From positions 69,464-133,463 of the forward strand of contig CATMOE010000004.1 of the NCBI GenBank assembly GCA_950072105.1: a DNA stretch of 64,000 nt. The letters run 5' to 3'. The DNA is from an uncultured Dehalococcoidia bacterium. GTDB taxonomy: Bacteria > Chloroflexota > Dehalococcoidia > Lucifugimonadales > UBA3495. Under the pieces are notes generated by a model. That model was not told the origin of the DNA, did no database searches, and saw only the letters and a program-made list of their open reading frames with translations. Position 1 is the stretch's first letter, and each line of letters begins with the position of its first letter. A program made the translations under genes and the position numbers. Below, piece after piece: positions 5,972 to 17,369 of this stretch.

Positions 5972-6595
5972 GTGAAATTATCCAGACTTAAAAAACAAAT
6001 ATCGCTCGATCAAACCCCCAAGTTGGCGTCCGACCAACGAGGAATCACCGGGCTGGAAACCGCGATCGTGTTGATCGCTTTCGTGGTCGTTTCCTCCGTA
6101 TTTGCCTTCGCGGCGCTATCCACCGGCCTGTTCTCCAGCGACAAAGCCAAAGAGACCCATACCGCCGGGCTAGCCGAGTCTAGAGGCACTCTGGAGCTCA
6201 AAGGATCGGTGGTTGCCAAGGTGAGCGGAACCACCGGCGCGACCGGCGTGGTGACGAGCATCGAATTCCAGATATCCAACGCCGCCGCCGGTGAGGCAAT
6301 TGACATGACTCCGGGTAATACCATTATCAAGTACAGCGACAAGACTCAGACGGTGAATCTGAATTCCAGCACTGAGTTCAGCGCTAGCAACATCGCCGCC
6401 TTCGGGGACACGGACTCTCTGTTGGAGATTGGCGAACTCTTCCAAATCACGCTTTTGAATCTAACCTCAAACCTCGCCACCGACTTGGGTACAAATACCG
6501 ACTTTACCATAGAGATGATACCTTCCGGGGGAGCCGTATTATTCATAGGACGGAGAACACCGGTGTCTTTGGAAGCGAGTAACCGCCTCGACTAG
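5972..6595 (+). CDS. Archaellin (archaeal-type flagellin, ArlB/FlaB-like)
   Basis: Class III signal peptide QRG|ITGLETAIVLIAFVVVSSVFAFAAL; C-terminal DSLLEIGELFQITL...FTIEMIPSGGAVLFIGRRTP typical of archaellins. Confidence 0.85.
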   Translation: MKLSRLKKQISLDQTPKLASDQRGITGLETAIVLIAFVVVSSVFAFAALSTGLFSSDKAKETHTAGLAESRGTLELKGSVVAKVSGTTGATGVVTSIEFQISNAAAGEAIDMTPGNTIIKYSDKTQTVNLNSSTEFSASNIAAFGDTDSLLEIGELFQITLLNLTSNLATDLGTNTDFTIEMIPSGGAVLFIGRRTPVSLEASNRLD

Positions 6596-10939: not shown

Positions 10940-11446
10940 GATTCATCCTCCTAGTTGACCGAGTGCTGATCAAGGGTCACTGCGATTCTCTCTCGCCGTT
11001 TGGATCATACAATCATTATCGGTTTCCCCCGACTGACGCCGCATTTCCTAATAAGTTGAGGCCAACTTCTCCGGTATATCCTAACCGCCATGTATCGGGT
11101 GAATCTGGGAGTGAGATTAACCCCATGTTGAATGAAGCGCACGCGATACCGGAGAGGTAAATCAGTCCGACGGTAGTATACTCCGAATGTATGTGCTGGG
11201 ACACGTATGGGTGCGCGGTTCAAGATTGGCCGCGGCGTATTTTTGCCGGATCGGCCTGGCCGGCATAGAGATAAAATCGGAAGTTGGTGACGTTGAAGGC
11301 CGGTTCGAAGTCGTTGATATCCCTACCGGAAACTGATATTATTGATAAGACGTTCATCGGTCATCGGTGACCGCCATCCCCCCTGAAAATTCAATCCGTC
11401 TAGTCGGCTGGAACAGCCGAATGGCCAGAAATTAGGGTTCAGAGCG

Positions 11447-11611
11447 GCCATCCAAGTATCGAACCTCCGGGTGGACCGAAGAAACCCAATCTACCGGGAA
11501 AGACCCGGTGGACTGCCTCAACCAGCGTAACCAGGACGCCCACCCAGGTAGAACGGTCCCGTTAAACCGAACGAGCAATAGTCCTTGTCCCAGGTTTGAT
11601 CTGTGGATGGT
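11447..11611 (+). ncRNA. ssrS: Putative 6S RNA (long irregular hairpin with central bubble)
   Basis: Manual folding: gccatcca/tggatggt; atcgaacct/aggtttgat; ggg..ggac/gtcc..ccc; A-rich central bubble (cgaagaaacccaa vs cgttaaaccgaacgagcaata); inner stem tctaccggg/cccaggtaga. G-U pairs favour the + strand; size fits 6S RNA. Confidence 0.6.
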
Positions 11612-11679
11612 AGGGATGCGGATGGCGTGATGGAAGGCTAAATGTTCAGCAGAGGCTGAAAATTCTGGAGGTATCTGAA

Positions 11680-12501
11680 TTGATTAGTCAAAGTGGCCCG
11701 TCGCTTTCTGAAGCCCTGACTCGGTTTATCGCCTCCAAGAAGGGCGGTAAGAAGGCCCAGGATGGGCATCAAGAGCTCGGCCGCTTTGTGGCCTGGTGTG
11801 GACGGCAAAGAAAAGTAAACGACGTTTCGCCGGCTGAGGTTGCTGAATACGCCCAGCACATCGGTCTGGGAGGCGTCGATGCGGCGCTTAGGCTTAATCC
11901 ATTAAAACCCTTCCTAGCCTATCTCAAAGATGAAGGTTGGATCGTCAATGGATTGGCGGCCCACCTAAGGGTCCCTAGGACGCGAAAAACCACCGGAGGC
12001 CGCTCGTCTTCGTCCGGAGCGTATGGGGATGATGATGCTACCCATTTGAGCCAAGAAGGATATGATCGCCTGGTGGCCCAAGTTGCGGTGCTCAAAGGGG
12101 AGCGGGTCAGCATCGTGGAAGATATCCGGCGGGCGATGGAGGACAAGGATTTTCGCGAGAACGCCCCATTGGAAGCGGCCAAGGAACGCCAGGGCATCAT
12201 TGAGTCCAAGATCCGGGAGCTAGAAGCCGGCCTGGTCAGCGCTGTTGTCATGCAGACGGGGCGCCGAACCGCTCAGCAGAAGGCTGTTGTGGGCGCCAAG
12301 TTGACTCTGAAGGACATGGATTCAGGTAAGAAGGTGGTTTACACGCTGGTAGACGTTCGGGAAGCCGATGCTTCCTCCGGGAAAATATCCACAGTCTCGC
12401 CCGTCGGTTCTGCATTGATGAGCCGCAGTGTTGGCGAAGAGATTGCGATCAACGTTCCTAAAGGCACATTGAAGTACACCATCGAAAAGATTAGCACGTA
12501 G
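11680..12501 (+). CDS. greA: Transcription elongation factor GreA with ~115-aa N-terminal extension (tyrosine-recombinase core-binding-like)
   Basis: LSQEGYDRL...DKDFRENAPLEAAKERQ...GKISTVSPVGSALM; N-terminal helical segment LSEALTRFI...ELGRFVAW...VSPAEVAEY...RLNPLKPFLAYLKDEGWI. Confidence 0.85.
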   Translation: MISQSGPSLSEALTRFIASKKGGKKAQDGHQELGRFVAWCGRQRKVNDVSPAEVAEYAQHIGLGGVDAALRLNPLKPFLAYLKDEGWIVNGLAAHLRVPRTRKTTGGRSSSSGAYGDDDATHLSQEGYDRLVAQVAVLKGERVSIVEDIRRAMEDKDFRENAPLEAAKERQGIIESKIRELEAGLVSAVVMQTGRRTAQQKAVVGAKLTLKDMDSGKKVVYTLVDVREADASSGKISTVSPVGSALMSRSVGEEIAINVPKGTLKYTIEKIST

Positions 12502-12540
12502 CATACTGCCTTATTTAAAGCCGCGTTTTAAGATTGAAAT

Positions 12541-12577
12541 AAAAAGAGGCCCGGACTTCCGGGCCTCTTTTCTTTTT
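12541..12577. terminator. Bidirectional intrinsic terminator
   Basis: aaaaagaggcccgg-actt-ccgggcctcttttcttttt between convergent greA and peroxiredoxin. Confidence 0.85.
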
Positions 12578-12582
12578 GATCT

Positions 12583-13047
12583 CTAGCCTAGTTTGTCTAT
12601 TTCCGCCAAGATATCCAACGGGTCTGGTAGCACGCCGGGAACGTAGGTCTGGCGGTACCGGATGATCCCGTCTTTGTCCACCACGATCACCGCCCTGGTG
12701 CTGGCGCCTCGCTCTTCGTTCCATAGATCGAAGGCGATCGTGGCTTTACCCTTGGGATGGAAATCCGATAGCTCGGGGTAAGGCAATCCTCCCAAAGAGG
12801 TTGACCATGCGCGGTGAGCCGCTACTGTGTCGCAACTTATGCCCAGAACCTGAGCATTTTTCTCCTCAAACCGGCTGTGATGTTGCCGGAAGAGGGTGGC
12901 TTGCGTGGTTCAACCAGATGTGAAGTCGAACACGTGGAAAGAGAGGACCACGTGCTTTTGACCCTTGTAGCTGCTTAGGGTGATGTCTCCTTCACTCACC
13001 GAAGGAAGGGTAAAATCAGGGGCTGGGTCGCCAACTTGTGCGGGCAT
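12583..13047 (-). CDS. Selenocysteine-containing peroxiredoxin (AhpC/TSA, AhpE-like); in-frame UGA at 12910-12912
   Basis: MPAQVGDPAPDFTL...FHVFDFTSG-U-TTQATLFRQ...QVLGISCD...LSDFHPKG...RAVIVVDKDGIIRY. The TGA sits exactly at the peroxidatic Cys position and the frame continues into ORF 12583..12795. Confidence 0.85.
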
Positions 13048-14332: not shown

Positions 14333-14363
14333 ATCCCCCCAACTTTCTTTACGAAAGGGGGCT
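14333..14363. repeat. REP-like palindrome family A (ccccctttacgaaaggggg), degenerate copy
   Basis: atccccccaactttctttacgaaagggggct; related copies at 54603 and 60268. Confidence 0.65.
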
Positions 14364-14393
14364 ATTCAGGAGTCGAAGAGGAATCGTCAAAAG

Positions 14394-14424
14394 CGTAGGG
14401 GCGCGTTTCAAACCCGCCCCTACG
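14394..14424. repeat. GTAG-type REP-like palindrome
   Basis: cgtaggggcgcgtttcaaacccgcccctacg, an imperfect inverted repeat with GTAG/CTAC ends. Confidence 0.65.
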
Positions 14425-14473
14425 CGCGTGAACGACTTTGCGTTGGTTGGCATAATCTGGGGGGCGCCAACGC

Positions 14474-14507
14474 CCAGCATGCGGTTGACCGCGCTCAGAT
14501 AGGCCTT
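14474..14507 (-). repeat. 34-bp exact duplicate of leuA 3' region (15854-15887)
   Basis: ccagcatgcggttgaccgcgctcagataggcctt occurs at both positions. Confidence 0.9.
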
Positions 14508-14621
14508 GTCCCTCGCCGATCCGAGTCCGTACCTTCAGCCTTGGATAGCACTTTCCGCCTACAGGGTCATAGCGGGTATCCCGGCGGCTGCGAGGGAAAT
14601 ACAAAAAAGACAGACTCCCAG

Positions 14622-15624: not shown

Positions 15625-15734
15625 AGAAACACCCGATCTGCAATTACATCCAAGTGCATTGTCCCGCACCCCGGTCATCCACGCCTATCCGGATGACTTA
15701 TGGATCTGCCCCGCAAACGGCACTTGACGAGGGC

Positions 15735-15776
15735 AAAAACAATAGGGGCGACCCGATCGCTCGAGTCGCCCCTATT
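15735..15776 (-). terminator. Intrinsic terminator downstream of leuA
   Basis: aataggggcgac...gtcgcccctatt stem, followed on the minus strand by gttttt. Confidence 0.75.
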
Positions 15777-15803
15777 CTGCATCTGATGTGCCCTGGTGAG
15801 GAC

Positions 15804-17369
15804 TTAATCCGGGGTGGTGCCCACGGCCGGGATGCTTGACTCTTCGTCGGCGGCCAGCATGCGGTTGACCGCGCTCAGATAGGCCTTTCCGCTGGCGACG
15901 ATTATGTCGGTGTCGGCGCCCCGGCCCGTGTAGACCTTCCCGGCATTCTCGATCCGGATGGTGACGCTGCCGATGGAGTCCATGCCCTCGGTAACCGCTT
16001 GAACCTTGAAGTCCACCAGTTCGCATTCGCAGCCGATCACCCGGTCGATGGCATTGCAGACAGCGTCCACCGGGCCGTTGCCGGTGGATGCGTCGGTGAC
16101 CGATTTCTGGTCCGGTCCGATGAGCCGGACGGTGGCGGTGGCGATGTCTTGATCGCCTCCGGAGAACTGCACGTGGTCCAGGGTGTAGCTGATCGGCTCG
16201 GTAGCCGTCCGATTCTCCTCGTCCATGAGGATCTCCAGGTCGCGGTCGGTGACCTCCCGTTTCTTGTCGGCCAGCTCTTTAAAGGACTCGAATACCTTGG
16301 CCATTTCCTCTCTGGACAGGGCGTAGCCCAAATCTTCCAACCGGGACTGGAGACCCGCGCGGCCACTGAGCTTGCCCAATACCAGGGTATTGCCGGGGAC
16401 GCCCACCCGCTCGGGCTGCATCACTTCGTAAGTGGAGCGGTTCTTTATCACACCGTCCTGGTGGATACCCGAGGCATGCCGGAAGGCGTTTTCCCCAACG
16501 ATGGCCTTGTTGGCCTGAACGGCCATGCCGGTGATGCGGCTGACCATGCGGCTGGCCCCGTATATCTGGGTGGTGTCGGCGTTGATCTCTACCCCGAAGT
16601 GGTCCTTCCGGGTGTCCAACCCCATGATTATCTCTTCCAATGATGCGTTGCCGGCCCGTTCGCCGATGCCGTTGATGCAGCCCTCAACCTGGCGGGCGCC
16701 GAACTCGACGGCAATGAGGCTGTTGGCCACGGCCAGTCCCAGGTCGTTGTGGCAATGGACGCTTAGCACGACGTTTTCGATACCTTGGACATTGGCCTGA
16801 ACGTCCTTCAGCAGTTGACCGAATCCAGCGGACGAGGGGATGGCGTAGCCCACTGTGTCGGCGATGTTGATGGTTGTGGCCCCGGCCTTAATCACCTCAG
16901 ACAACATCTGGAACAAGTATTCTGGGTTGGTCCGGGTGGCGTCCATGGGGGAGAACTCGACATCGTCGCAGTAGCCCTTGGCTCGCTCAACCATGGTCAC
17001 CGCCATCTCCATGACCTCTTCCCGGTTCTTGCGCAGTTGGTGCATCTGATGGATCTCCGAGGAAGAGAGGAACACGTGGATGCGGGGGCGCTCGGAGTGC
17101 TCCACGGACCGCCAGGCTTGGTCCACGTCGTTGGCCACGGCCCGGGCCAGGGAGGCGATGATGGGTCCCTTGATCTCTTTGGCGATGTTGGACACCGCCT
17201 CAAAGTCACCAGGTGAACTGGCGGCGAAACCCGCTTCGATAATATCCACATTCATCCGCTGCAGTTGGCGGGCGATCTCCATCTTCTCTTGACCCGTCAT
17301 GCCGATGCCGGCCGACTGCTCTCCGTCGCGGAGGGTAGTGTCCAATAGCAACACTTTTTCCATAGCCAT
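15804..17369 (-). CDS. leuA: 2-isopropylmalate synthase
   Basis: DTTLRDGEQS, HCHNDLGLAVANS, NGIGERAGNA, HASGIHQDG, C-terminal regulatory domain GNGPVDA. Confidence 0.96.
   Translation of the reverse strand: MAMEKVLLLDTTLRDGEQSAGIGMTGQEKMEIARQLQRMNVDIIEAGFAASSPGDFEAVSNIAKEIKGPIIASLARAVANDVDQAWRSVEHSERPRIHVFLSSSEIHQMHQLRKNREEVMEMAVTMVERAKGYCDDVEFSPMDATRTNPEYLFQMLSEVIKAGATTINIADTVGYAIPSSAGFGQLLKDVQANVQGIENVVLSVHCHNDLGLAVANSLIAVEFGARQVEGCINGIGERAGNASLEEIIMGLDTRKDHFGVEINADTTQIYGASRMVSRITGMAVQANKAIVGENAFRHASGIHQDGVIKNRSTYEVMQPERVGVPGNTLVLGKLSGRAGLQSRLEDLGYALSREEMAKVFESFKELADKKREVTDRDLEILMDEENRTATEPISYTLDHVQFSGGDQDIATATVRLIGPDQKSVTDASTGNGPVDAVCNAIDRVIGCECELVDFKVQAVTEGMDSIGSVTIRIENAGKVYTGRGADTDIIVASGKAYLSAVNRMLAADEESSIPAVGTTPD

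Follow-up and report, generated by a model that had tools for sequence, protein, structure and literature searches.

The window analysed here, a stretch of 64,000 nucleotides from an uncultured marine Dehalococcoidia bacterium, encodes a GreA that carries, in front of its Gre domains, a helical domain with the predicted fold of the core-binding (CB) domain of tyrosine recombinases. We propose that this GreA combines a catalytic tip with a DNA tether, the CB-fold domain, which would hold it near RNA polymerase, and that the folded stretch upstream of the gene, which a first-pass annotation had taken for a 6S-like RNA, is the leader of the greA messenger. To this reading as a whole we give a probability of about 50%. 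The CB-Gre combination itself is a well-supported GreA architecture with a predicted function, and apparently has not been described so far.

The greA ORF (11680-12501, + strand) begins with a TTG start codon and encodes 273 aa; the Shine-Dalgarno sequence GGAGGT (11667-11672, +) lies 7 nt 5' of the TTG and is invariant in six of six leaders. On its 5' side are 741 non-coding bases, then a divergent gene of the zinc-binding dehydrogenase family, and relatives of the locus carry the names Dehalococcoidia or SAR202. In Pfam, the Gre coiled coil (PF03449; 12040-12249, +; residues 123-190) scores 58.9 bits against a cut-off of 24.5, and the Gre C-terminal domain (PF01272; 12274-12501 with the stop codon, +; residues 200-272) 76.5 bits against 26.9. 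Because the Gre domains begin at residue 123, the N-terminal extension amounts to about 120 residues, close to the 115 or so first counted. The acidic tip DFREN (12148-12162; residues 157-161), described as intact in the first-pass annotation, is indeed so: its five residues, D157 and E160 among them, are unchanged in 64 of 64 aligned homologues, and the string DKDFREN is found in 106 of 127 ORFs. From this motif, the protein can be expected to promote transcript cleavage. Among NCBIfam models, those for GreA come top, far above those for GreB, the best reaching 124 bits against a cut-off of 167; TIGR01462, with 114 bits against 139, is also below its cut-off. Canonical GreA, GreB and Gfh1 (1GRJ, 2P4V, 2ETN) have in common with this protein both Pfam domains, the D-x-x-E tip and the fold (fold Z of 12.9-13.0 for the full-length model against canonical Gre structures), but they lack the additional 120 or so N-terminal residues, and the protein with these residues stays under the NCBIfam GreA cut-offs. 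Gre fusions as such have precedents: NCBIfam includes long GreA fusions (models of 718 and 906 positions) that belong to other groups.

Downstream, a 13-pair hairpin preceded by an A-tract and followed by a T-tract (12542-12571) is the likely bidirectional terminator of greA and of a convergent peroxiredoxin gene; greA RNA contigs stop at 12541 in two of four RNA runs. Codon 46 of the peroxiredoxin (AhpC/TSA; 12583-13047, - strand) is an in-frame TGA (12912-12910), which falls where the catalytic residue is expected, in a T-x-x-stop context, and has a hairpin behind it; judged from these signals, the peroxiredoxin is likely to be a selenocysteine protein split by ORF callers. Elsewhere in the window, an ORF at 5972-6595 (+) matches the archaeal flagellin family PF01917 (E = 3e-20) in this Chloroflexota genome, and one short stretch is seen twice, at 14380-14600 and at 15650-15810, in the translations of spurious minus-strand ORFs (14362-14604 and 15772-16026); the interval 15647-15812 has a folding z of -4.8, and the stretch is possibly a dispersed intergenic repeat.

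The N-terminal extension comprises a helical domain (residues 7-98; 11698-11973, +), to which the model, the fold search and profiles assign a tyrosine-recombinase core-binding (SAM-like) fold, and a linker (residues 99-120; 11974-12039, +) that is flexible, basic and poorly conserved according to the model, its charge and its conservation. The helix and the flexible linker pointed out earlier are both present in the model, with pLDDT below 50 at residues 99-119. A model of residues 1-105, built from 40 class-wide sequences, reached a pLDDT of 82 and a pTM of 0.74. In a comparison with 48,161 solved chains, tyrosine-recombinase N-terminal/core-binding domains or full recombinases took all of the top 22 places: the best match, 3nrw, had a Z of 12.2 (96 residues superposed at an rmsd of 2.3), lambda Int one of 11.0 and XerD one of 9.8, and the earliest unrelated chain stood at 6.2. 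The full-length GreA model gave the same fold result for the N-terminal domain; in it, the orientation of the domain relative to the Gre part is not fixed (pTM 0.36; linker pLDDT 35). Foldseek retrieved the same recombinase families, with a best E-value of only 0.03.

The sequence signal is fainter. The domain of this protein matches no Phage_int_SAM family in Pfam, and PDB sequence searches using it returned nothing credible. Among the 40 domain members, PF02899 was matched by seven (E < 0.05) and PF13495 by five, with a best E of 0.0007. The 40-domain profile aligned to one recombinase of this genome with a probability of 83% (E = 8.7e-6, 64 columns) and to a second with a probability of 3% (hhalign), and an Atlas search with the domain led to Phage_int_SAM clusters at 0.88-0.89, which we treat as a lead only. 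The CB-like domain, first called by eye, was thus correctly identified at the level of the fold, with weak support from the sequence, and given these models we hold the CB fold of the N-terminal domain to be nearly certain.

The domain shares its predicted fold with the CB domains of recombinases (3NRW, 2OXO/1Z1B, 1A0P; PF02899, PF13495; Z of 9.8-12.2), but here the recombinase catalytic domain is absent, and Gre domains stand behind the CB domain, which is thereby fused to a transcription factor. Compared at what we presume to be the DNA-contact positions of recombinases, helix 2 begins with a shortened, variable part, and a proline, P74, breaks helix 4; this proline is invariant in 64 close homologues and present in 53% of sequences class-wide. 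Helix 2 is named as the DNA-binding helix in the part of PMC3367168 available to us. Basic residues are kept among 150 homologues at R71 (R or K, 88%), K76 (98%) and R97 (95%), and over 123 sequences the net charge has a median of +4 in the domain and of +3 in the linker; the charge of the domain spans -14 to +10 among homologues, some being net acidic. The most conserved domain residues (Q31, E32, F36, W39, G41, Y57, H95) could equally build the core or a protein-binding surface.

The fusion is widespread. The domain was matched in 124 of 151 Dehalococcoidia genomes sampled, including 88 of 108 of good quality, these being counts of domain matches of which the weakest were only partly checked for fusion. 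Each of 35 family genomes has a full-length relative, and one Dehalococcoidia family (f8), sampled seven times, gave no domain match. In other Chloroflexota classes, 8 of 81 genomes have strong matches, all eight being CB-Gre fusions; four of 13 weak out-of-class matches were inspected, and none had a Gre domain. Three unpublished genomes count in the genome tallies and support no other claim. A search of 1.84 billion proteins gave 514 matches; of the best 150, 102 have at least 200 residues, and 95 of these contain the Gre coiled coil, the rest appearing frameshifted or chimeric. The domain has a mean identity of 71%, between those of the coiled coil (74%) and the C-terminal domain (68%), with the linker at 36%, and its dN/dS is 0.065-0.082. 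On these comparisons the domain is under purifying selection, conserved as strongly as the Gre part.

In two of four genomes of one Dehalococcoidia family, a Gre with the extension ends after the coiled coil, and a separate canonical GreA is present. This short form, of 188 aa (locus L180, 1174-1740, -; a second one in L195), was scored with the N-terminal domain profile in one of the two genomes and read by eye in the other.

Cultured Dehalococcoides-type genomes have the same fusion. Their GreA (three loci) has a methionine at the Gre boundary and the tip variant DKDMREN, and older annotation may begin at this internal methionine and so omit the N-terminal domain. The GreA of D. mccartyi is acetylated at K17 according to PMC7918482, which, in the parts we could consult, does not mention an extra GreA domain. 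In the three Dehalococcoides-type proteins, residue 17 is N or S in full-length numbering and K when counted from the internal methionine, so that the acetylated K17 is probably in the coiled coil. The CB-Gre fusion is likewise not described in those parts of the literature that we could consult on GreA in Dehalococcoides, SAR202, Chloroflexota and Chlamydia, on N-terminal extensions of Gre factors and on recombinase core-binding domains in transcription.

Upstream of greA, a promoter at 11314-11342 (+) consists of TTGATA, a 17-nt spacer and a TG-extended TATTAT, matching the consensus at 10 of 12 positions with the TG present. Using a promoter profile with a threshold of 12 (30 shuffles scored at most 10.5), we found the orthologous promoter in 68 of 82 distinct close-relative loci, whose GreA are 49-100% identical; at the 14 loci without a match, there is mostly an upstream gene abutting greA or a contig end. 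The same profile exceeded 12 in just one of 28 class-wide loci. Two side observations concern promoters of this region. The bases AAAC, right before the extended -10 (11330-11333), are kept at 69-89% per base in close-relative greA promoters and at only 17-33% in 39 other TTG-17-TG promoters of this genome, a pattern from which an operator or a promoter-strength element is possible. On the opposite strand, the TG-TATACT box of the divergent dehydrogenase gene (11161-11174, -), whose leader is about 220 nt here, is also seen in the majority of related intergenic regions inspected.

With a start deduced from the -10 box, the predicted greA leader is 331 nt long (11349-11679, +), genus-specific and constrained. 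Leaders behind the conserved promoter measure 92-465 nt and fall into 31 unalignable groups, so that long, rapidly changing leaders are usual for greA in this family; their median folding z is 0.0 (66 scored), and a terminator-like site occurs in two of 68 of them and is absent from this one. The leader is 78-79% identical to that of the sister clade, a figure inflated by gapped alignment, against 54-55% at four-fold degenerate sites, and on this comparison it is under sequence constraint within the genus. Its best-supported hairpin (11490-11512, +) has 92.6% of cells paired and one pair changed on both sides between clades; another hairpin, outside the interval first proposed (11400-11424, +), is nearly invariant in six of six sequences, with no two-sided change, and its pairing is predicted. 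A conserved leader peptide was considered and rejected, clade indels of 1, 4 and 11 nt breaking all long frames. A seven-codon ATG...TGA mini-frame at 11607-11630 (+) keeps its start and stop in six of six leaders; it has no clear ribosome-binding site and could be due to chance.

Transcript data came from four marine metatranscriptomes, of 14 RNA runs containing the stretch, in the form of contigs that show neither strand, ends nor level, that may include DNA and from which small RNAs may be lost. Beyond a gap in coverage, RNA contigs start at 11357-11436 and run into greA, and in three of the four runs they span both ends of the proposed 6S-like element with at least 31 letters on each side. 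The depth of the element is about that of greA (in one run, 32-55 over the element and 47 over greA), contig depth being a weak measure. The interval 11144-11291 is without RNA contig in all four runs, which hints only weakly at a promoter region that is silent. The folded stretch is thus likely to be part of a long 5' leader of the greA mRNA, of about 330 nt.

The element in question (11447-11611, +) has a 22-pair closing stem (11447-11471 with 11589-11611) and a multibranched core. Two points of the first-pass annotation stand: the stem ends 68 nt before the start codon of the co-oriented greA, as against the 70 nt or so stated, and no terminator separates the two, the + strand having no terminator-like site within 11234-12542. 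The rod with a central bubble of about 165 nt that had been described, in contrast, was not recovered: 0 of 1000 sampled structures had one or two hairpin loops, and 780 had four, although in this sequence the first eight pairs of the closing stem are predicted at probabilities of 0.9-1.0. The stability of the element depends on the choice of its ends. At exactly 11447-11612, folding z was -4.67 or -3.86 in two computations, against -0.8 to -1.4 when shifted by 10 nt and -2.18 for 11440-11630; on a fixed grid, none of the 321 places scanned (399 planned) reached z -4, whereas with chosen ends four of six low-scoring background places reached -4.2 to -5.1.

Comparison of six homologous leaders, from two clades only, gave a mixed picture of the stem. 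In one close relative, four one-sided changes have left all 22 pairs intact. The four sister-clade sequences keep 12 of 22 pairs each and fold at z -0.2 to -1.4, so that the stem is broken at 10 of 22 pairs in a clade with an 89% identical GreA; they show three two-sided changes and nine pairs departing only by unpaired cells, and the 12 pairs kept exceed slid controls (33-42%). The stem may thus be real or decayed. The covariation score beats 500 of 500 shuffles, which, as the tool warns, related sequences can do without structure, and covariation measured by counting pairs or types was not outstanding (55 and 92 of 500 shuffles).

Searches for the element outside its genus were negative. RF00013 had no match on 11330-11690 at E up to 10, none in the whole genome (92% complete) and none in any of 60 genomes of this SAR202 family; because of this last result, its silence is weak evidence on its own. 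Rfam gave no credible family on the element, and only tRNAs 5' of greA in 20 class-wide loci. BLAST of the element against 120 family genomes returned merely four scraps of 25-34 nt, nhmmer over 140 loci found genus members only, and a covariance model of the core matched three of 100 family genomes, all of this genus, the 97 others being empty, and none of 100 loci. A pattern scan of metagenomes gave eight loci, five of which are greA leaders; the three others share just 25-26 nt with the element and were put down to chance. The element is single-copy in the genome, and the idea of a repeat or mobile element was therefore rejected. A minus-strand RNA was also considered: its consensus energy is similar, but in this clade it folds with a weaker z, and the promoter speaks for the plus strand.

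A 6S RNA has been proposed in D. mccartyi CBDB1, namely sRNA1, and this offers a closer comparison. According to the sections of PMC12961961 that we consulted, sRNA1 is monocistronic (588900-589086), lies between tRNA-Arg and hpt, has antisense short RNAs, and likewise matches no Rfam family; its normalised counts are 29,437-524,454 against 68-96 for greA, which is located about 18 kb away (607527-608327) and, with its 801 bp, would be of the long form. In three genomes where sRNA1 homologues were placed by synteny, two fold as single rods (905 and 862 of 1000 samples) and the third does so in 31 of 1000. The similarity of the element to sRNA1 is equalled by 56 of 1000 shuffles, nhmmer with sRNA1 found no match on the greA leader, and the sRNA1 terminal motifs require 6-8 mismatches there; short motifs common to both, noticed by eye, were not significant and were discarded. 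The searches made found no sRNA1 homologue in this genome. In a genome of another family, an element of about 125 nt behind a TTGACA promoter (locus L169, about 1410-1533, +) has terminal motifs like those of sRNA1 and is a probable shorter homologue of it, judging by these motifs. In sum, the element resembles 6S RNA (RF00013) and sRNA1 by its length and long closing stem, and differs from them in matching no model, in not being a rod, in being limited to a genus and, for sRNA1, in being unrelated in sequence. We conclude that it is very probably not a 6S RNA.

In the mechanism that we favour, a conserved sigma70-type promoter (11314-11342), recognised by comparison, precedes the whole element, and a single transcript would start near 11349, take in the leader and greA and stop at the terminator at 12542. 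The Gre coiled coil inserts into the secondary channel of RNA polymerase, where acidic residues of its tip promote cleavage; D157 and E160 would do so here on backtracked RNA. The CB domain, on its basic linker of about 20 residues, would bind DNA with little sequence specificity and so make the factor more concentrated around complexes that are paused, backtracked or in initial transcription. To our knowledge, Gre factors are held to find polymerase through their C-terminal domain alone, and the Gre forms devoid of this docking domain fit an anchoring role of the extension. The constrained leader, for its part, would tune greA expression in cis, in this genus only. In E. coli, GreA autoregulation requires the greA leader in cis (PMC2836576 and PMC6829880, as far as available), so that a regulatory 5' leader in front of greA has a precedent. 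However, the E. coli GraL RNAs of 40-60 nt derive from an intrinsic terminator, according to the same sources; here the leader is about 330 nt long and has no terminator-like site, and its cis-regulation may therefore follow another mechanism.

The role of the CB-fold domain is where the readings diverge, the fold alone being no proof of function and DNA binding by the domain staying putative. A DNA tether is favoured by the basic residues that are kept, by the basic and flexible linker, by the forms without the docking domain and by the precedent of E. coli FliZ, which, in the part of PMC3367168 we consulted, binds promoter DNA via an integrase CB-like region, reused there, as here, in transcription control. 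It is disfavoured by the alteration of helices 2 and 4 and by the existence of acidic members. These last two facts would suit a domain that docks on a protein surface of the polymerase (the rim helices of beta-prime, the jaw or an insertion particular to the lineage) and backs up the Gre C-terminal domain or takes its place, the leader being interpreted as above. The Gre that has the extension and lacks the C-terminal domain, in two of four genomes of one family, also speaks for docking; that family, however, also has a canonical GreA, beside which the short form may be a paralogue in decay. Moreover, basic residues are kept on helix 4 and behind the last helix, and the solved homologues among the fold matches act on DNA. 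We regard docking as rather unlikely, though worth keeping in mind. Alternatively, the domain might read specific DNA as FliZ does, and target GreA to certain promoters or repress its own. Besides the FliZ precedent, the AAAC kept in greA promoters (69-89%, against 17-33% in the 39 others) points this way, but orthologous promoters may retain extra bases through descent, the promoter profile exceeds 12 in one of 28 class-wide loci although the domain is class-wide, and the presumed recognition helix begins with variable residues. FliZ is, in addition, a repressor with demonstrated binding to extended -10 sequences, again as far as that source was available, whereas the present domain is N-terminal to an elongation factor and its binding is predicted. 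Specific reading thus seems improbable. We give no better chances to a bolder version, in which Chloroflexota would have domesticated a recombinase domain to make a DNA-targeted Gre that cleaves at chosen sites (promoter-proximal pauses, its own promoter), with the docking domain dispensable and a new, structured 330-nt leader closing a feedback loop in this SAR202 genus.

Another possibility is that 11447-11611 is a divergent 6S-like RNA cut from the greA transcript and acting with the tethered GreA. Its size fits, its stable closing stem is retained in one relative, and the Rfam model that is silent on it is silent in all 60 family genomes, as Rfam is on sRNA1. Nor is a leader position by itself a bar, since Coxiella and other bacteria have ssrS within the ygfA 5' UTR (PMC4064990, consulted in part). 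Against this, the ensemble is multibranched where two of three sRNA1 homologues form single rods (86-91% of samples), the stem is broken at 10 of 22 pairs in a sister clade with 89% identical GreA, no homologue was found in the 97 other family genomes or the 100 loci, nor any similarity to sRNA1, and the element shows no excess of depth over greA, in contrast to the counts of sRNA1. The module of RNA and Gre factor put forward in the first-pass annotation fails for a further reason: the adjacency of element and greA is not conserved beyond the genus, while the fused domain is found class-wide and beyond. Of the co-transcription that it also assumed, what survives is that the element is likely on the greA transcript, as an mRNA leader and not as a 6S module. 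We consider a 6S-like role very unlikely. Finally, the extension and the leader could be passengers without a role, for canonical GreA functions without such a domain, family f8 (seven samples) has no match, and leaders turn over fast between genera. Yet the domain has a dN/dS of 0.065-0.082, is conserved on a par with the Gre domains and is kept in several classes, which largely refutes this reading as far as the domain is concerned, and the leader is better conserved than silent sites; that both should be passengers is hardly credible.

In practical terms, the element should not receive a 6S annotation. As to GreA, if the tether reading is true, an anchor derived from a recombinase and selected across the lineage would represent a new way to aim proofreading and arrest rescue.
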